Shown here piece by piece: positions 15,885 through 46,176 of a stretch of DNA of 63,486 nucleotides (within the stretch, counting starts at the first letter, position 1; each line of letters starts with the position of its first letter). This DNA is from a virus (Duplodnaviria > Caudoviricetes): IMG/VR virus record IMGVR_UViG_3300036833_000428, positions 1-63,486 of that record; one strand, 5' to 3'. The position numbers and the translations under genes are program-made. The notes under the pieces are model-generated. The model saw nothing but the letters and a program-made list of their open reading frames with translations. It searched no databases and was not told where the DNA came from.

Positions 15885-16119
15885 ATCTGCCCAAAGCGTT
15901 CGACTTTGGGCAGATTCATGGGCAGATTCGTCCACCCCCGCCATTTATTGGACTTTTTGCCCATCTAAATTGGCCTCAGTCCATCCTAAATTATTGAAAA
16001 ATAAGGAAATTAAGCTGGCTTCGAACCAGCAGGCCGCACGTTCGAGTCGTGCCGGGCGCGCCAGGAATCAATAACTTACAGGCATCTATTTTAGGCGCTT
16101 TGGGCAGATATGGGCAGAT
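15885..16119. promoter_or_regulatory. attP region with integrase arm-type repeats and an IHF-like site
   Basis: TGGGCAGAT at 15907, 15919, 16101 and 16111 and inverted at 15885; AATCAATAACTTA (WATCAANNNNTTR match) at 16066-16078. Confidence 0.8.
16014..16063 (+). other. attP core: 3' half of tRNA-Arg (anticodon UCG)
   Basis: GCTGG-CTTCGAA-CCAGC anticodon arm, GCACG-TTCGAGT-CGTGC T arm and acceptor strand ending CCA; no 5' half; just upstream of the integrase. Confidence 0.9.
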
Positions 16120-16139
16120 TGGTGGTAAACTGCTCATTC

Positions 16140-17345
16140 ATGGCGAGGAAACGAATTGTCGAAGGCCCCATCGGTAACGGTTGGATCGATGAAGTGAGAA
16201 CAGATAACGGTGTGCGGTTTGTGGCGCGATGGAAGAAGTTCGTCGCTGATCCCGAAGCACCAGAAGGACGTCGTCGAATCAACGGTGGTCAATACGAGAT
16301 CGGCCCAAAGGTCTACCATGGTCCTGGCCTTAAGTCGAAGAAGGACGCTGAGAAAGCATGGCTCCAAATCTGTGACACAGTTATGGGGCGGGTAGTCGAC
16401 ATACCAGCAGGGCTGAAAGCAAAAAAAACCCTTCGCTGGTTCACTGAGGAAGACCCAGAGGGATTTCGCAAGCACCGGGAAAAACGCTGGAGTGGCAGCA
16501 TGCCCAAATGGTACGACTACCTGATGAACAACTTCATCCTCAGACGCTTCGGAGACACAGCTCTGAGCGAAATGCGCGAACAGGACATGCAGGCCTTCTT
16601 GAACGAATTGGCAAACAACGAGTACTCCGAGTCCGTTGTCAAAAACACCAAGACCTACCTCAATGCAATCCTCGATGAAGCGAAAGAACAAGGCGCGCTC
16701 CAGGTGAATCCAGCGCGCAATTTAATTAAGCCACGGAACACTCGCAAGCCACAGCGCTCCTTCATCACGGCTGAACAATACCAGAAGGTCATCGTGGCCG
16801 CCCCCACTTTCCGGGATCGTTTGATGATGGCGATTCTTTATATCGTCGGCCTGCGTCGCGGCGAATTGTTCGGCCTGCAATGGCGCGATTGGAATGGCAC
16901 GAACACGCTCATGATCGAACGTCAGATCCTGGAGGATCTCAGTGTCGGCCCCGCAAAGAGCGATGGGTCAATCGCGCCCGTGGTCATCCCCACAGACGTA
17001 GCCAGGGATCTTAACGAGTGGCGCAAATGGTGTCCTGATTCCAGCTCCGAAGGCTGGATTTTTGCTTCACCCCGCAAGGCGCATATCAATCCCGGCTTCT
17101 GGCGCAAAACCGTACTGATCCCGGCCGGCAGTGCAGCCGGGATCGTCAAGCTCAGCTTCCACGCATTTCGTCGCGGATTCGCTACCGAGGCGCATAGCCA
17201 AGGCGCTACAGATAAATCCATTCAGGCACAATTGCGGCACAGGCAGGCCAGCACCACCCGCGACCTCTACATGCAGCCCATCGCCGAGGATCAGCGCCAA
17301 AGCGTCGAGACCTTTTCTAAAAGGGTTAACACGAGACCCAACTAG
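16140..17345 (+). CDS. int: Tyrosine integrase
   Basis: GLRRGELFGLQWRD, K (PAKS), FHAFRR, LRH and DLY catalytic motifs. Confidence 0.95.
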   Translation: MARKRIVEGPIGNGWIDEVRTDNGVRFVARWKKFVADPEAPEGRRRINGGQYEIGPKVYHGPGLKSKKDAEKAWLQICDTVMGRVVDIPAGLKAKKTLRWFTEEDPEGFRKHREKRWSGSMPKWYDYLMNNFILRRFGDTALSEMREQDMQAFLNELANNEYSESVVKNTKTYLNAILDEAKEQGALQVNPARNLIKPRNTRKPQRSFITAEQYQKVIVAAPTFRDRLMMAILYIVGLRRGELFGLQWRDWNGTNTLMIERQILEDLSVGPAKSDGSIAPVVIPTDVARDLNEWRKWCPDSSSEGWIFASPRKAHINPGFWRKTVLIPAGSAAGIVKLSFHAFRRGFATEAHSQGATDKSIQAQLRHRQASTTRDLYMQPIAEDQRQSVETFSKRVNTRPN

Positions 17346-26189: not shown

Positions 26190-26483
26190 ATGGCCGCTAC
26201 TTTAACTACCCTCAGCCGCACCAATACACTTTCCCTTGCGGCCACCACAGCCTACCAGCTCGTCAGCAAAACCACCGGCAGCTGCTACTTCGGCGTCCTT
26301 AATTTGGGCCCAGGTAATCTCTATGTGCGCTTCGATGCCGCCCCCACGGGCGCCACCGATATAGCCGCCATGGAGCTGCCCGTAACGACGGCCCTGTTCG
26401 AATTCTACGTTACCGGCTCGAGCGGCCTTTATGTTCTCTCCGATCAAGCCGGAAAGATCAGCGTGATCGTGAACTCACGTTAG
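26190..26483 (+). CDS. Small beta-rich putative virion protein (paralog of 3226-3537)
   Basis: AAGGAG RBS; collinear similarity to 3226-3537. Confidence 0.75.
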   Translation: MAATLTTLSRTNTLSLAATTAYQLVSKTTGSCYFGVLNLGPGNLYVRFDAAPTGATDIAAMELPVTTALFEFYVTGSSGLYVLSDQAGKISVIVNSR

Positions 26484-27397
26484 CCGCCGCCGCCCGCCGA
26501 GCCGTAAATCCCCAGCGGATCCGACCAGCCGAACGAATAGCGTTCGCGAGCTTTGTAGCGCAGATTCCCGGTGTCGAAATCCGGATCGTCCTGCGTCTTT
26601 AACGGCACACGCTCAAAATGCTTCAACCCGTTGGGCACGTCCGTGCACAGATACCAAGCCTTGGGATCTGTAACCCAGTGGTTCACAAACCATCCCTCGG
26701 GAATCGTCCCGTTAGTAAAGATGGCGTTTACGTCGTTATCCGCGCTGCCCGGCCGGTACTGCGAACGCAACAAACGCGTGGCCGTGAAGTTGAGCGCCGG
26801 CGGCACAACCAACCGCCGTGGCTTGGCCGCAATCAGCAGACCGCGATCGTCGACCCACAAAGAGATGGTCGTCGCCGCCGCCTCGAGGGCCGTTTCATTC
26901 AAGTCCGCCGAGGTCGCGGAAGTGTTGGCGTTGAGCACCCCGCCCATCACCAGCGGATGGCTCGCGTTGCATAGCGATACGCCATCACCGCCCGGAAAGG
27001 TGGGGTCGAAGGCGTTGTTAAGGATGGAGGCGCCTTTGACTTGTTTCGTGTGGGCCATGCTTCTTGCCAAGGCCTGCGTGTAACGCCGCGAGAGCGAATC
27101 GTAGAGATTATCCTCGAAGGCCTCTTCGGTGATCGAAAAGCCGATCGAAATAGTCTCATGCGTATACCTCGCGGTATACGTCTCCTGCGCTTCGTCGTAA
27201 TGGGTGGCCGCGCCTTCCGCCTTTACCGGCGCCGGCCCGAAGCCCGTAACTTTGGTCTCCTCTTCGAAAGAACGTTCGGAGCTTTCGGTTGCGAAGATCT
27301 CCTTGTGCTCTTCGGGGTAGCGCTTGTACTCGAGTCCGAAAAGGGCGTTGAGCCCTGGAACCAACTCCTTTAATAGTTGTGCTCTTGATATGGCCAT
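26480..27397 (-). CDS. Major capsid protein
   Basis: MAISRAQLLKELVPGLNALFGLEY...DFDTGNLRYKARERYSFGWSDP, a capsid family widespread in uncultured phages. Confidence 0.92.
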   Translation of the reverse strand: MAISRAQLLKELVPGLNALFGLEYKRYPEEHKEIFATESSERSFEEETKVTGFGPAPVKAEGAATHYDEAQETYTARYTHETISIGFSITEEAFEDNLYDSLSRRYTQALARSMAHTKQVKGASILNNAFDPTFPGGDGVSLCNASHPLVMGGVLNANTSATSADLNETALEAAATTISLWVDDRGLLIAAKPRRLVVPPALNFTATRLLRSQYRPGSADNDVNAIFTNGTIPEGWFVNHWVTDPKAWYLCTDVPNGLKHFERVPLKTQDDPDFDTGNLRYKARERYSFGWSDPLGIYGSAGGGG

Positions 27398-39153: not shown

Positions 39154-39575
39154 TGGTATCGAATCAGAGCCGTGGTCGGCCCGGGCGGAGGAAACCGCAC
39201 CCAGAAATTTCCAGAGACCGAAGTCTTATCCGTCACGAAATCAAAGATCAGCACGGCGCGCTGCTGCTTCGACTGGTTATAGATCAGCGCCCCGCGCGCG
39301 GTCAAAGAAGAGCTCTTCCAGACCGGATCGTCAAAGGTCGCATACGCGGTGCGGATCACCGGCCCCAGGATCTGCACGTTCTTTAAAGCCTGCCCGCCCG
39401 CCGTATACCCCGGCCCTACGATTTCCCCATCAGTGATGTAGGCCGTAGTCGAGTCGGGAGAAAGCGGAGCCGAGGCCTGATAGAGAGCCATGAAAAAAGT
39501 GTCCGTCGAAAAATTATGCAGACCCTGGAAAAGCTCGAGCTTGAAAGAAGAGCAAACGGCCGTGCCTGAAATCAT
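39150..39575 (-). CDS. Conserved virion structural protein
   Basis: CSSFKLEL..G.HNF..DTF..ALY...YTAGG...TARGALIYN...FP. Confidence 0.75.
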   Translation of the reverse strand: MISGTAVCSSFKLELFQGLHNFSTDTFFMALYQASAPLSPDSTTAYITDGEIVGPGYTAGGQALKNVQILGPVIRTAYATFDDPVWKSSSLTARGALIYNQSKQQRAVLIFDFVTDKTSVSGNFWVRFPPPGPTTALIRYQ

Positions 39576-40222
39576 GCATCCGTCCTCACATCAGGCTCTT
39601 GATACGTATCCTTCTTTGTCCGGCCCTTGGCGTAATCCTTATCCATTGCCAGGTCCTTCTCAAACGCCTGGTCGTAGCGCACGAAAATATTGTCCTCGCT
39701 CTTCATGAATTTGGCCGCTTCCACCAGAGACCCGGACAGGAGCGCGTGCGAGAAGTGATCCCCCAGCCAGCTCGTGCCCATGTCTACGATCGACGGTGGT
39801 TGATAGAAATAACCCATGCTGACCGGATAGGCCTGGTCCGGCGCCGGCGCGAACTTGAGGCTCGACTCATTCAAATACGCATAAAAGCGCGGCGTGCCCG
39901 TAAACGATAGGTCGGGGTAGCATTCGTCTAAAAACTCCGGGTCTTTGTTGACCGGGAAAACCAAGCCGTTGATGGTCGTGATCGCGACCGAATCCGGGGC
40001 CAGAAAGTCGGAAGGCACCGGCAACAGCGGCTGCGCGACCGGAGGCGTGCCCGCCGGCGGGATCAAGGCCGCGGTCGCGTCCTTGCGGAACCGGGGAAGA
40101 CGCACGCGCAACAAAATGCGGCTTTCGGCTAAACGGATATAGTTGTCGACATTCTCGACAAAACTCGCCTCAAAGTCCTGCGAGTACTCCTGAATGGCCG
40201 CGCGCAACTGTACGTAGGTCAT
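39572..40222 (-). CDS. Head-tail adaptor (tail tubular protein A-like)
   Basis: MTYVQLRAAIQEY...IRLAESRI...GTPRFYA...APAPD...WL...LLSGSLVEA. Confidence 0.8.
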   Translation of the reverse strand: MTYVQLRAAIQEYSQDFEASFVENVDNYIRLAESRILLRVRLPRFRKDATAALIPPAGTPPVAQPLLPVPSDFLAPDSVAITTINGLVFPVNKDPEFLDECYPDLSFTGTPRFYAYLNESSLKFAPAPDQAYPVSMGYFYQPPSIVDMGTSWLGDHFSHALLSGSLVEAAKFMKSEDNIFVRYDQAFEKDLAMDKDYAKGRTKKDTYQEPDVRTDA

Positions 40223-41978: not shown

Positions 41979-42029
41979 ACCGTATTCGGGATTATACCGC
42001 CGGGACACACCCGAAATGATCAAATGAAG

Positions 42030-42734
42030 CTAGATCGATTGGTAATTCCAGGGAATGAAGTGGAAGCTGGCCCGGTCGCGATCTTCATCCGAAGCCAAAC
42101 CAAATTGCTCCTCATATTCCGCTTTAAGCAGCGGAACCCGCTGCAGCGCATTGGGGTCCTTGGATTTGAGCGCCAAACGAAAAGCCAGGCCGGCAATCAT
42201 GGCGGGAATGAAACGCCAGGGGATCTCCGGCATGCCCGTCCCCCCCTGACCGAGCGGCGCCATGCGCCGCAAACGATAATAAGCCAGCGCATAGACGGGA
42301 CTCGTAGGCGGCGTCATCCAGAGATAAAAGTAAGGATGAATCTGCCGGCGAATGGAAACGATCGAAGGCCGGCCCTGCGCCCATTTATTCGGAATCGCAT
42401 CGTATTCGGGAAATGTCATGCGGTCCAGAGGGAAATCCGTATACTGCGACACCCCGTTCGCATCAACCGTGGGAATACGTAATATATGGTCCACCAGATC
42501 GACCGTGTCGTCCGGCAGCCAGTATTGCGAAATCCCCGGCAACAGCGTGATCGTGACCGGCCCTTCGATCGTCCACAGGTTTAATCCGCGATTGGCCCAC
42601 TCGATCTGCAGCAGCTCGAGCGCCCGCCGCGCCGTGCGTAACGAATAGCCACTCCGAAACTCGATGCCGGCGCGCTCCGCGGCCTCCTGCGCAATCTCCA
42701 CTACATCGAAGGTGGGGAAAGCACCCGCCGCCAT
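42030..42734 (-). CDS. Head-tail connector protein
   Basis: EAAERAG...SGYSLRTARRALELLQIEWANRGLNLWT...PWRFIPAMIAGLA. Confidence 0.8.
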   Translation of the reverse strand: MAAGAFPTFDVVEIAQEAAERAGIEFRSGYSLRTARRALELLQIEWANRGLNLWTIEGPVTITLLPGISQYWLPDDTVDLVDHILRIPTVDANGVSQYTDFPLDRMTFPEYDAIPNKWAQGRPSIVSIRRQIHPYFYLWMTPPTSPVYALAYYRLRRMAPLGQGGTGMPEIPWRFIPAMIAGLAFRLALKSKDPNALQRVPLLKAEYEEQFGLASDEDRDRASFHFIPWNYQSI

Positions 42735-42735
42735 A

Positions 42736-43401
42736 TCACTTCGCCCGCCGCGCCTGACTCAGCCCAATAGCGATCGCCTGCTTCCGGTTGCGCACGAGCG
42801 GCCCCTTCTTCGAACCGGAATGGAGTTCGCCTGATTTGAATTCCTGCATGGTTTGGTGCATCTTCTCACGCCCGCGCGGAGTGGTAGAAACCGCACCGCG
42901 CCTGGCTTTCGACAGCATGGGCTGATTATACGCCGGCTCAACAGGCACCGCTAACCCGACATATCCGACAAACACCCCGTGATCATAATGCGGAGCGTTA
43001 TACGACACGAGCCGGACATAGGTTCCATCAGCCCGACGCAGCCGATAGCAGGTCGTAGCGGAAACAAGCGCCGCACGGCCTCGCAAGTAATCACTCCACA
43101 AAAGCTCGATATCGTCCGGATGCACCGCCTCGGACCACCCCGTTCCCACGCTATTGCCCACATCCCGTCCCGTAAGCGCGTACCAGTCACTGCTCAGAGA
43201 GGTGCAGATATTATCCGGGGCCACCCGCCAGCACAGCAGGTGCGGCAAGCGGCGCAGCAGACAGATCGCATCCCGAAGAATCTCCTCGCATGACTCCTCC
43301 AGACGATCTAAATCTTCGGGATGATCGGCTACTACGATCAGCATCCGCAACGCGGTGTGCCAATCCGCCAACTCGGCTTCGGACGGCCTGAGAATTCCCA
43401 T
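42736..43401 (-). CDS. PAS-domain protein fused in frame to a DUF6496-like basic domain
   Basis: WYALTG...GTGWSEAVHPDD...YRLRRADGTY...GYVG (PAS_3/PAC pattern) then MQEFKSGELHSG...RKQAIAIGLSQARR. Confidence 0.8.
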   Translation of the reverse strand: MGILRPSEAELADWHTALRMLIVVADHPEDLDRLEESCEEILRDAICLLRRLPHLLCWRVAPDNICTSLSSDWYALTGRDVGNSVGTGWSEAVHPDDIELLWSDYLRGRAALVSATTCYRLRRADGTYVRLVSYNAPHYDHGVFVGYVGLAVPVEPAYNQPMLSKARRGAVSTTPRGREKMHQTMQEFKSGELHSGSKKGPLVRNRKQAIAIGLSQARRAK

Positions 43402-43518
43402 CGCACGTCCCCTTTGAAAAGGAGTATATGCCCAACGGATACAGGCCGATCAATTTTTTTATTCTGGGTTACAACCACCGAGAGAGCTTCCCAATATAGT
43501 GCCCGATGAAGTCAAAAG

Positions 43519-44232
43519 CTATCTGGTTTTAATGTCTCCAGTATCTAGATCTGCACCATGGCGCCGAGTGGGCTTGCGACCCAAAATGTTCGAGGTCATC
43601 TCCACGAGTTCCTTTCGCAACTCCGTTCGCCAGGCCACCCGGTCCTGATCCTGCCGCTCCCCGAATTCCCTGATCTTCTCGTTCAATACGTCCTTGATCT
43701 TCTCCGAAACCTCTTCGCGCCGGATCCAGGCGGATTGAAACTTGCCCATCAAAGGCTTAAACTGCTCGTCTGACATCGGCGCATAGGAACGCAGGGCTTC
43801 CTCGAATGCCGGATGCTTGCGCGCCTCCTCGAGCACCTTCAACAGACTGTCGCGATAAATCTCGTTGAAGACCGTCGTGAACACCATCTTCGGCATGCGT
43901 AAATAACCAAGCACCGAAATTACGACCGACTGCTCTTCCGGCGTAGCATACAAAACCAGAAATCGTGCGAAACGCGCCACACGATCCTCGTTCATCTCCT
44001 CGGCCACTAACTTCACAATGCCGCGTTCCAGGATATCCGTAATACGCTCACCTGTAGCTTTGGCGTGCGCATACGCCATGTCCAGATAAGACTGCTCGAT
44101 CCGCACGCTGATTTGACTCTTTACCTTTTTTCGCCCGCGCGGATCACGAGCCTTTACGGAATCTTTGGCGGACTCCACAGTTAGAGGAGGGCCGGGGGTA
44201 ACCGGCTGAACCTCCTTTCGACGTTTAGCCAT
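43519..44232 (-). CDS. Putative ribbon-helix-helix regulator
   Basis: KSQISVRIEQSYLDMAYAHAKATGERITDILERGI; AGGAG RBS; divergent from the replication operon. Confidence 0.65.
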   Translation of the reverse strand: MAKRRKEVQPVTPGPPLTVESAKDSVKARDPRGRKKVKSQISVRIEQSYLDMAYAHAKATGERITDILERGIVKLVAEEMNEDRVARFARFLVLYATPEEQSVVISVLGYLRMPKMVFTTVFNEIYRDSLLKVLEEARKHPAFEEALRSYAPMSDEQFKPLMGKFQSAWIRREEVSEKIKDVLNEKIREFGERQDQDRVAWRTELRKELVEMTSNILGRKPTRRHGADLDTGDIKTR

Positions 44233-44402
44233 GTCCAGTCTCCTATCGTTTATCAGTGGAAATTCAGTGGAAAAGATAAACCCGATTTTTGCCGTTGACT
44301 TATATCGGGTGCGGTGGCAGAATTTGTGAGTCGTCCGTTTCTTCTGATCGCCGCTTACATGGCAGCGACCGGGACCACCCCTTCGACCATCCGAGGTGAC
44401 GT

Positions 44403-44666
44403 GTGTCTGTGGCATCGGGCTATCTCAATAATACGGAAACATCTTCCGCTAAAAGTCTCAAAAAGCAATCAATTTCACCCAGGAAAAGTACCAGAGACAC
44501 AAACACCATCTATCAGGCTTTGTGTCGCCAGCAGCTCTTCGGGCGAGTCATCGAGACTCTGGCATATTATGCCCGACATTCCACAGTTACTGCCAGACCA
44601 CAAGATATAGAGCTACTTCTCACTATCGATCTAGCCCTAGTGCGCTACGGGAAGGAAAAGCTCTAA
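44403..44666 (+). CDS. Hypothetical protein
   Basis: GAGGT RBS with GTG start; stops 1 nt before the helicase ATG. Confidence 0.45.
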   Translation: MSVASGYLNNTETSSAKSLKKQSISPRKSTRDTNTIYQALCRQQLFGRVIETLAYYARHSTVTARPQDIELLLTIDLALVRYGKEKL

Positions 44667-44667
44667 G

Positions 44668-46176
44668 ATGCAACCCTGGCCGCACCAGATAGAGGCCGCA
44701 CAGTACGTACGCGACTTACTCTCCAAAGGCAAACGCGGGTTCATGCTGGCTATCACCATGGGCGGCGGCAAAAGCAAAATCACCATCGACCTGATTGTCG
44801 AACTCGGAATTCGGGTTGTTCTGATTTTGTGTCCGTTGAGAGTCGTCGAAGTGTGGCGCCAGCAGTTCGTCCGGCACGCTCCCGGCCAGTATCGATTTCT
44901 GGCCCTCGATGACCGCTATCCAACCGTCACCGCCAAATGGCATGCCGCGCGCGACGCCACCGATTGGCAAGCCCGGCTGCCCGGCCAGAAACTGGTGATC
45001 GCGATCAACTATGAGAGCGCCCGCCTGGGCGCTTTTGCCCACTGGGCCACCAACCGCCCCTGGCCTATGGTGATAGCTGACGAATCGCACCGCGGAAAGC
45101 TCAGTAACGGCCGGACGGCGCGCTTCTTAGCCAAGCTCGGCATGCTGGCCGATATCCGCGGCGCCCTTACCGGAACTCCGATGCCGCATGAACCGCTCGA
45201 CATCTGGGCGCAGTTCCGCTTCCTTGATCGCAATATCCTCGATGCGACGTACGGCGCATTCAAGGTACGGCATGCCATCCTGGGCGGCTACCAGGGCCGG
45301 CAGATCGTCGCCTGGCGCGATCTCGACCAGCTGCAGGAAAAATTCCGGTCCATTGCCTTCCACGTCGGGCGCGAAGTCCTCAACCTTCCCGTGCTGGTCG
45401 AAGAGGCTCTCTACACCACCCTCTCGCCCAACGCCGCGCGCATGTACCGCGAGATGGAGCAGGACCTCATAACCCGCATCGAGACCCACGAGGTCACGGC
45501 CGCCAATGCCCTGGTAAAGCTGCTGCGGCTCGAGCAAATCACCAGCGGCTTCGTGCGCGACGACGAGACGAATACCGACACCATCATCGATGAGGCCAAA
45601 GAAAAACTACTCGAAGGGCTGCTCGAGGACCTGACCGATAACAATCCGGACCGGGCGTTCGCCCAATTCGAAGGTAATCGACCACCCCAAAACGAGCCCG
45701 TGGTCGTTTTCGCCAAATTCAAGGCGGACTTGAAAGCCATCCATCGCGCCGCACGCGCCGCTGGCTTCAACTCGGGCGAGCTCTCGGGCAGCCGCGATGA
45801 TCTCCAGGCCTGGCAACGGGGCGAGCCTAACGACCCTACCGTGCTCGCCGTCCAGATCCAGGCCGGCGACGTCGGCATCGATCTCACCCGCGCGCGCTTC
45901 GGGGTGTATTATTCGCTCGACTATTCGCTGGCCCACTATCTCCAATCACAGGCGCGCATCTACCGGCCTCCACAAAATCAACGGGTCGCTATCTATCACC
46001 TGCTGGTGCGCAACTCAATCGATGAGATCGTCTGGCGCGCTGTAAAACGACGGGAAAGCCTTATCGACGCCATTTTGAGGGAACTACCATGCTTCCATTC
46101 CAACAATCAGAAACAGAGCCGGAACCAGAACCCAGAAGTGCAGAGTATAGAGCCTTCCATGAGTTCGCGGAACTGA
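44668..46176 (+). CDS. SNF2-family (SF2) helicase/ATPase
   Basis: MGGGKS Walker A, INYE, DESH, LTGTP, GIDLT, QSQARIYR. Confidence 0.92.
   Translation: MQPWPHQIEAAQYVRDLLSKGKRGFMLAITMGGGKSKITIDLIVELGIRVVLILCPLRVVEVWRQQFVRHAPGQYRFLALDDRYPTVTAKWHAARDATDWQARLPGQKLVIAINYESARLGAFAHWATNRPWPMVIADESHRGKLSNGRTARFLAKLGMLADIRGALTGTPMPHEPLDIWAQFRFLDRNILDATYGAFKVRHAILGGYQGRQIVAWRDLDQLQEKFRSIAFHVGREVLNLPVLVEEALYTTLSPNAARMYREMEQDLITRIETHEVTAANALVKLLRLEQITSGFVRDDETNTDTIIDEAKEKLLEGLLEDLTDNNPDRAFAQFEGNRPPQNEPVVVFAKFKADLKAIHRAARAAGFNSGELSGSRDDLQAWQRGEPNDPTVLAVQIQAGDVGIDLTRARFGVYYSLDYSLAHYLQSQARIYRPPQNQRVAIYHLLVRNSIDEIVWRAVKRRESLIDAILRELPCFHSNNQKQSRNQNPEVQSIEPSMSSRN

Follow-up and report, generated by a model that had tools for sequence, protein, structure and literature searches.

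A PAS domain in frame with a nested DUF6496 gene upstream of the adaptor gene of a temperate soil phage: a probable lineage-specific chimera

In the genome of an uncultured temperate phage, one minus-strand open reading frame (ORF) of 221 aa, at 42736..43401 (stop included), joins a PAS_3 domain to a DUF6496 domain in a single frame. With moderate confidence, we regard this long ORF as a real and intact strain-level chimera. The insert, ∼0.8 kb of foreign DNA, would have entered at a variable site, with a conserved regulator-like gene on one side and the promoter-like box of the connector operon on the other, and would have brought in a complete PAS_3 gene with its own Shine–Dalgarno sequence and no stop codon. 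Ribosomes translating PAS would then read on in frame, over the old TATAAT and start codon, into the DUF6496 gene of ∼55 aa that was already there, and the locus would probably give two nested products, the ancestral short basic protein and a long PAS-tagged isoform. Read in this way, the locus would be a clean case, found in nature, of a gene born by insertion, in which a captured domain reads over an old promoter box and start codon, and the insertion itself creates the nested long and short forms.

The window, by which we mean the whole stretch of 63,486 bp that was analysed, is a complete phage genome (63.5 kb) with direct terminal repeats. The phage is temperate; it encodes a tyrosine integrase (16110–17345), and a large terminase, a portal and tail fibres are also present. 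A plus-strand replication block begins at 44668, and on the minus strand the virion operon extends from the PAS–DUF6496 ORF down to the major capsid gene (26480–27397). The TGA stop of the ORF (42736–42738) is followed, after 1 nt, by the ATG (42734) of an SU10-type adaptor gene (42030..42734, minus strand; Pfam SU10_adaptor), which agrees with the 1-nt gap before the first connector gene described in an earlier, sequence-only reading of this DNA. An Rfam scan of 42600–44700 at E ≤ 1 gave 0 matches.

The long ORF and the state of its PAS part

A Shine–Dalgarno-like sequence, AAAGGGGA (43408..43415, minus strand), lies 6 nt upstream of ATG 43401, and similar motifs precede several other genes of the phage. 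A start at Met20 (P0001, 202 aa) was rejected, as it has no Shine–Dalgarno sequence and Met20 is Ile in one of the variant contigs (X2) described below. Pfam places PAS_3 (PF08447) at aa 69–149 (42955..43197, minus strand), with E 1.9e-9 and 38.1 bits against a cut-off of 25.6, the match covering profile positions 4–87 of 89. DUF6496 (PF20106) is found at aa 179–220 (42742..42867, minus strand), with E 3.1e-11 and 43.9 bits against a cut-off of 24. The two domains recognized by eye in the sequence-only reading are thus both above the Pfam cut-offs in one ORF, and its statement that kinase and cyclase outputs are lacking also holds, since Pfam gives no kinase, cyclase, HTH or other DNA-binding family in the long ORF and NCBIfam adds nothing. 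Residues 1–161 are acidic (pI 5.0) and contain 5 Cys and 6 His. No LOV-type NCRFL motif was seen when the sequence of the PAS part was read by eye.

We searched the long ORF exhaustively with phmmer against 1.84 billion protein representatives at a threshold of E ≤ 1e-3, and recovered 16,129 proteins. The best 150 of these 16,129 are mostly large multi-PAS proteins, aligned within residues 8–194 and mostly over ∼29–160, which is the PAS part, at 25–35% identity. Because the matches fall on the PAS part, the PAS call is far above chance. Many alignments begin at query residue 29–39, within an N-terminal helical hairpin (aa 8–50; 43252..43380, minus strand; helices predicted at 8–26 and 28–50) that aligns with the inter-PAS linker helices of bacterial multi-PAS proteins. 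Matches that carry a name are annotated as ‘PAS domain S-box’, and their outputs are HisKA/HATPase or GGDEF/EAL. The phage protein resembles the PAS_3 domains of bacterial multi-PAS sensor kinases and of GGDEF/EAL proteins, at 25–35% identity over ∼100–125 residues with the preceding linker helix included; it differs from these proteins in having just one PAS domain and in lacking an enzymatic output.

Structure prediction of the PAS region is of low confidence. In the AF2 model its order of secondary-structure elements fits PAS, at a pLDDT of ∼50–65, and Foldseek rows for the full, low-confidence model are mostly PAS/LOV, all at E ≥ 0.04. A further fold search with the full model was set aside as uninformative, its rows covering the helical hairpin only (Z ≤ 5.9), and a sequence search of the PDB gave one match at chance level (E 0.64). 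Between the two domains lies a proline-rich, basic linker (aa 150–178; 42868..42954, minus strand), in which residues 155–169 have a pLDDT below 50, compared with 82–95 in DUF6496; the model thus predicts a disordered connection and not a signalling helix.

The PAS–DUF6496 combination appears to be new and a singleton. In a collection of 5.8 billion proteins it occurred only in the protein of this phage, present in two start-call versions and on two contigs, among the best 120 of 164 near-length matches, the single match to the PAS region (1/1) and 47 longer matches; these searches have blind spots that come from word-sharing, length windows and the use of the best 150 of 16,129 phmmer matches. 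The architecture was looked for in other phages, as the sequence-only reading had suggested, and neither the protein collections nor the fetched loci gave a second case. A close relative of the PAS part was likewise absent from IMG/VR, INPHARED and JGI metagenome contigs. We also sought a donor of PAS, but the nearest proteins are 25–39% identical, with none closer than 39%, and no donor was identified.

Several contigs bear on whether the ORF is intact. Independent Logan contigs from two soil runs match the ORF over its full length, junction included, with 0 differences; both runs may be of the source sample itself. Short, low-depth contigs of two diverged variants cover the upstream part: X2 spans 43227–43393 and 43419–43600 at ∼86–90% identity, and X3, from another study, spans 43015–43232 at ∼94%. 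Neither has indels or stops over the stretches covered, which exclude 42900–43015 and hence the PAS–DUF6496 junction. The sequence-only reading had allowed for a decayed PAS domain; we find instead no decay in the two variants and a complete PAS_3 profile match. Among the differences listed for the variants, 9 of the 21 changed codons are synonymous (PAS core 5/10, N-terminal helices 4/11), with p = 0.056 in a binomial test against a neutral expectation of 0.25. In sequence terms, this share hints at purifying selection on the PAS part, and so at a working PAS domain. The GC3 of the PAS part (0.65) is within the range of the other genes of the phage.

Relatives without PAS and the nested short gene

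A search with the adaptor gene identified relatives of the same layout, four from IMG/VR (L003–L006) and one (L168) on a contig binned with a Terriglobales MAG; their adaptors are 63–69% identical to that of this phage. The binning of L168 is a weak hint at an acidobacterium host. The phage and the five relatives have a common gene order, consisting of regulator, small gene, adaptor and Zn-finger gene. The small gene encodes DUF6496 alone in all five relatives (5/5), in an ORF of 50–59 aa that ends directly at, or overlaps with, the start of the adaptor gene, and PAS is absent from every one of them (5/5). The C-terminal 60 aa of the long ORF, which bear DUF6496, are 59–74% identical to the stand-alone genes of L003–L006, and a phmmer search with the PAS part against loci L001–L085 and L096–L167 gave no match beyond this phage. 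By these comparisons the 483-nt PAS part is lineage-specific. The sequence-only reading had envisaged that relatives might have a stop between the two domains; what they have is the short gene only, with no PAS.

The counterpart of that gene in the long ORF is a nested short ORF that begins at Met162 (42736..42918, minus strand; 60 aa, pI 12.0, net charge +12). TATAAT (42925..42930, minus strand), read as Tyr-Asn in the long ORF, lies 6 nt before this in-frame ATG, at 42918. The hexamer occurs 3 times in the 63,486-bp genome against 7.4 expected. No Shine–Dalgarno sequence precedes ATG 42918, which makes it a candidate leaderless start. A consensus scan of the minus strand found no full -35/-10 (sigma-70) site either at TATAAT or before ATG 43401, and the only terminator-like site from the scan is inside the regulator-like gene.

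Four of the five relatives have TATAAT upstream of the DUF6496 gene, at 8 nt from the ATG in L003, 9 in L004, 8 in L005 and 54 in L168, compared with 6 nt in this phage; L006 has no such box. The longer leader of L168 contains AGGAGG between the box and the ATG, and TATAATCGCCTCAA is common to L003 and L168. Sequence 5′ of TATAAT cannot be aligned between the phage and its relatives, and the N-terminus of the short protein aligns from its Met onwards (MLSKARRG in this phage, MLSKQRRG in L005). Because the stand-alone gene of the relatives has an equivalent box and N-terminus, we conclude from the alignment that Met162 is the ancestral start codon and that the Tyr-Asn before it is the ancestral -10-like box. 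The sequence-only reading had drawn attention to the TATAAT ahead of an internal ATG, and had cautioned that the basic domain may also be made alone and the fusion be incidental; the box and start have counterparts in the relatives, and the stand-alone genes bear the caution out.

Upstream, a conserved regulator-like gene occupies 43519..44232 (minus strand), with a likely start at Met62 of a 298-aa ORF. It had been taken for an RHH regulator. Its conservation and regulator-like character stand, its one PHROG match being to PHROG 876 ‘transcriptional repressor’ (E 0.003); the RHH identity could not be confirmed, as neither Pfam nor NCBIfam gives an RHH family and a profile search of the PDB gave nothing. 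The gene has a C-terminal extension of ∼75 aa (43522..43749, minus strand), which matches no family and which L003, L004 and L005 lack. The end of this extension is covered by the X2 contig (86% identical), so that it is not an assembly quirk. This tail, the 117-nt spacer that follows and the 483-nt PAS part together make up ∼0.8 kb of lineage-specific DNA.

In L168 the interval from the regulator to TATAAT (900–1662) contains an opposite-strand HTH_3 (XRE-type) gene and an ORF of 66 aa. This slot is therefore a variable insertion site, and the HTH_3 insert makes it look like a hot spot for accessory regulators. Two side observations concern the same interval in other relatives. In L005 a perfect 6-bp inverted repeat, CCGCAT...ATGCGG, lies between the regulator stop and TATAAT (L005:4771–4812) and could be a small terminator or an operator. 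In L025, a more distant complete relative of 63 kb, five small Lys-rich ORFs lie directly upstream of the adaptor (L025:3162–4977) in the place of DUF6496; among their features are KGG repeats, a GQWSARKAQ-type motif and, at the C-terminus, a recurring GGGIEVRGKTKGRMV motif. The slot ahead of the adaptor gene is of wider interest, since across a large group of soil phages not yet cultured it acts as a hot spot for accessory proteins that are small and basic.

Contexts and likely character of DUF6496

The DUF6496 motif, EFK.G.LHSGSK.GP.V..RKQAIAI.LS., is fully represented in this phage, whose copy has all 11 invariant columns of a 43-sequence alignment of the family. It shares these residues with the stand-alone phage proteins and differs from them by the additional 161-aa PAS extension. 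The nearest Atlas clusters are DUF6496 proteins of 60–68 aa, the top two recorded as 100% viral. A full-text search for DUF6496 found no mention in the library searched, and the family is one without a described function. AF2 models the domain as a helix, a hairpin-like loop and a helix, at a pLDDT of 84. Fold searches of the PDB with this model gave no usable match (best Foldseek E 3.8, best Z 4.6), a blank that shows neither a new fold nor an absence of DNA binding. A complex prediction for the adaptor with the short DUF6496 protein scored 0.02 (mark 0.32), from which we draw nothing either way.

Within this phage group DUF6496 does not belong to the core genes. The available DNA of 78 more distant adaptor loci, 69 of them with at least 500 nt upstream, lacks it, as do all three near-complete distant genomes (3/3). 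Where it does occur, its contexts vary. We fetched 72 viral loci by means of one KGG-rich DUF6496 protein, which makes them a biased sample; 70 of the 72 have a DUF6496 ORF, in which the domain stands alone (28), is C-terminal (8) or lies in mid-protein (34). An adaptor homologue follows on the same strand, 12–1333 nt downstream, in 34 of these loci. The proteins that carry the domain are Lys/Gly/Met-rich, of low complexity and KGG-rich. They have the same neighbourhood and motif as the phage ORF, lying in those 34 loci 12–1333 nt upstream of the adaptor, but the partner of DUF6496 in them is a low-complexity Lys/Gly/Met-rich sequence, whereas in the phage ORF it is a globular sensor domain.

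Among the stand-alone copies, one (L127) has a MuF-like head morphogenesis gene on one side and a scaffold gene on the other; others precede the gene of a tail protein (L105), of a virion structural protein (L001) or of an endonuclease (L158), or follow that of the large terminase (L166), and three further neighbours matched no PHROG. In longer proteins DUF6496 is fused to a head maturation protease (P0309, DUF2213/phrog_530) and to a polyvalent protein with ART-PolyVal and GNAT domains (P0314). Polyvalent proteins are, in the available text of PMC5512222, a proposed class that is packaged and injected. P0300 joins DUF6496 to DUF7417, and P0002 has two tandem copies. From these neighbourhoods and fusions, DUF6496 would be a recurrent, promiscuous and very basic 45-aa module of phage morphogenesis operons, and it is noteworthy in that respect. 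The same evidence suggests that it most likely binds a polyanion such as nucleic acid, and that it is not the output of a transcription factor.

A minor observation concerns a 410-aa Pro/Ala/Gly/Met-rich protein of this phage (40441–41673, minus strand), which has KGG motifs, no DUF6496 and no Pfam or PHROG match. Its N-terminus, MRIRG..RRFQGGG, and its C-terminus, GGKVRGCGIATKGCRFSGIY, parallel those of KGG-rich DUF6496 carriers (L161, L159, L164). In this clade DUF6496 seems to have split off from a KGG-type protein as a separate gene, or never to have been joined to one.

Origin and possible roles of the fusion

If the PAS part was inserted as we propose, the two products of the locus need not be made together. 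The position of TATAAT and the lack of a Shine–Dalgarno sequence at ATG 42918 suggest that the short protein is probably translated from a leaderless message, which would start at the A of that ATG, 7 nt after TATAAT, and be made with the virion genes, as in the relatives. The long isoform would come only from transcription begun upstream, whether within the 117-nt spacer or further back so as to cross the regulator gene, and because of this need it may be made at a different time from the short form. Any effect of PAS would presumably be to dimerize the basic module or to mask it electrostatically (pI 5.0 against 12.0) across a flexible linker of ∼25 aa; with the linker proline-rich and predicted to be disordered, coupling of this kind is more likely than classical allostery. 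The short protein would thereby gain a conditional form, and late transcription would not be switched. Nested in-frame gene pairs with an internal start are known in phages, for example lambda C/Nu3 and T7 gene 4A/4B. The present pair would be like them in having two products with a common C-terminus in one frame, as the conserved box and ATG suggest; it would differ in that its long form arose by recent insertion and in that both of its products are predicted.

We weighed this explanation against others. The sequence-only reading had viewed the protein as a one-component phage sensor that links a host or environmental cue to late expression or assembly. PAS would bind the ligand and DUF6496 would be a new DNA- or RNA-binding output that tunes those processes. 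A phage PAS receptor has a precedent in VqmA of vibriophage VP882, which the available text of PMC8284805 describes as a PAS receptor and DNA-binding transcription factor, and the idea fits with an intact PAS_3 domain behind its own Shine–Dalgarno sequence, variants free of decay, a very basic output module (pI 12.0), the presence of an integrase and the position of the gene at the head of the virion operon beside a regulator-like gene. To judge from that text, the likeness to VqmA is confined to the presence of a phage-encoded N-terminal PAS domain in a temperate phage; VqmA has a DNA-binding output, whereas PAS–DUF6496 has no DNA-binding family or fold match, and the PAS part here is neither conserved among relatives nor closely similar to any phage record searched. 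We found no support for the sensor and consider it unlikely. With PAS missing in all five relatives of the same layout, the receptor is not conserved among related phages, and the operon runs without DUF6496 altogether in the 78 distant adaptor loci and the three near-complete distant genomes. The output has no HTH or other DNA-binding family and no fold match (best Z 4.6, Foldseek E ≥ 3.8), the predicted disorder of the linker leaves no signalling helix, and DUF6496 is found elsewhere inside proteins of structural modules.

The junction may, at the other extreme, have no function. The PAS gene would then be a moron-like accessory that works alone or not at all, and the fusion a by-product of a stop-less insert. 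The distance from the last PAS strand to Met162 is just 8 codons, and over so short a stretch an open reading frame across the junction would not be improbable; unrelated inserts occupy the slot in L168, the ancestral box and start are unchanged, and the architecture is a singleton. Against this, every translated PAS ORF would carry the basic tail, and 60 aa with a net charge of +12 are unlikely to be free of effect, while variants at 86–94% identity retain the regulator-to-PAS arrangement, which has thus persisted for some time. We allow this neutral read-through a modest chance. A third proposal, that DUF6496 is a capsid-internal or DNA-associated tag that loads PAS into particles for delivery with the genome, is in our view very unlikely. 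It would account for the fusions of DUF6496 to the head maturation protease and to the ART-PolyVal/GNAT protein, the latter of a type proposed to be packaged and injected (PMC5512222, in its available text), and for the stand-alone copies in head modules; yet such fusions are just 2 of 47 longer matches, the phage protein is PAS_3 plus DUF6496 only, with no MuF or portal anchor and no multiple effector domains, and a long form that came only from upstream, early transcription may miss assembly.

We return to the lineage-specific insertion, which we prefer. As a counterpoint to a merely incidental junction, the intact PAS domain and the hint of purifying selection mean that the fusion itself might be selected. 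It could also be older than it appears, and shared by closer kin as yet unsampled, since the relatives compared are only 63–69% identical in the adaptor. A more specific role, which we put forward as a long shot, is that the long isoform is a ligand- or redox-gated nucleic-acid-binding variant made early or in the lysogen, where it competes with or pre-empts a constitutive short isoform. Morphogenesis in a temperate soil phage, or the fate of an incoming genome, would in that case respond to a small molecule. If the fusion works, it would represent a second route, unrelated to and following that of VqmA-type receptors, by which PAS input is coupled to the life cycle of a temperate phage, and it would offer a handle for the study of DUF6496, an uncharacterized and widespread domain.

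Two further features of the operon were noted downstream of the ORF. A second TATAAT, of the three in the genome, is at 41991–41996 (minus strand), 12 nt before the likely ATG (41978) of the conserved Zn-finger-like gene; it sits in a 51-nt gap that L003 does not have, and could serve as a further promoter inside the virion operon. A second SU10_adaptor-like gene (39572–40222, minus strand) lies 1.8 kb from the adaptor at 42030–42734 and is its paralogue; the pair has E-values of 6.6e-11 and 2.4e-19, and both genes are kept in L003 and L004.
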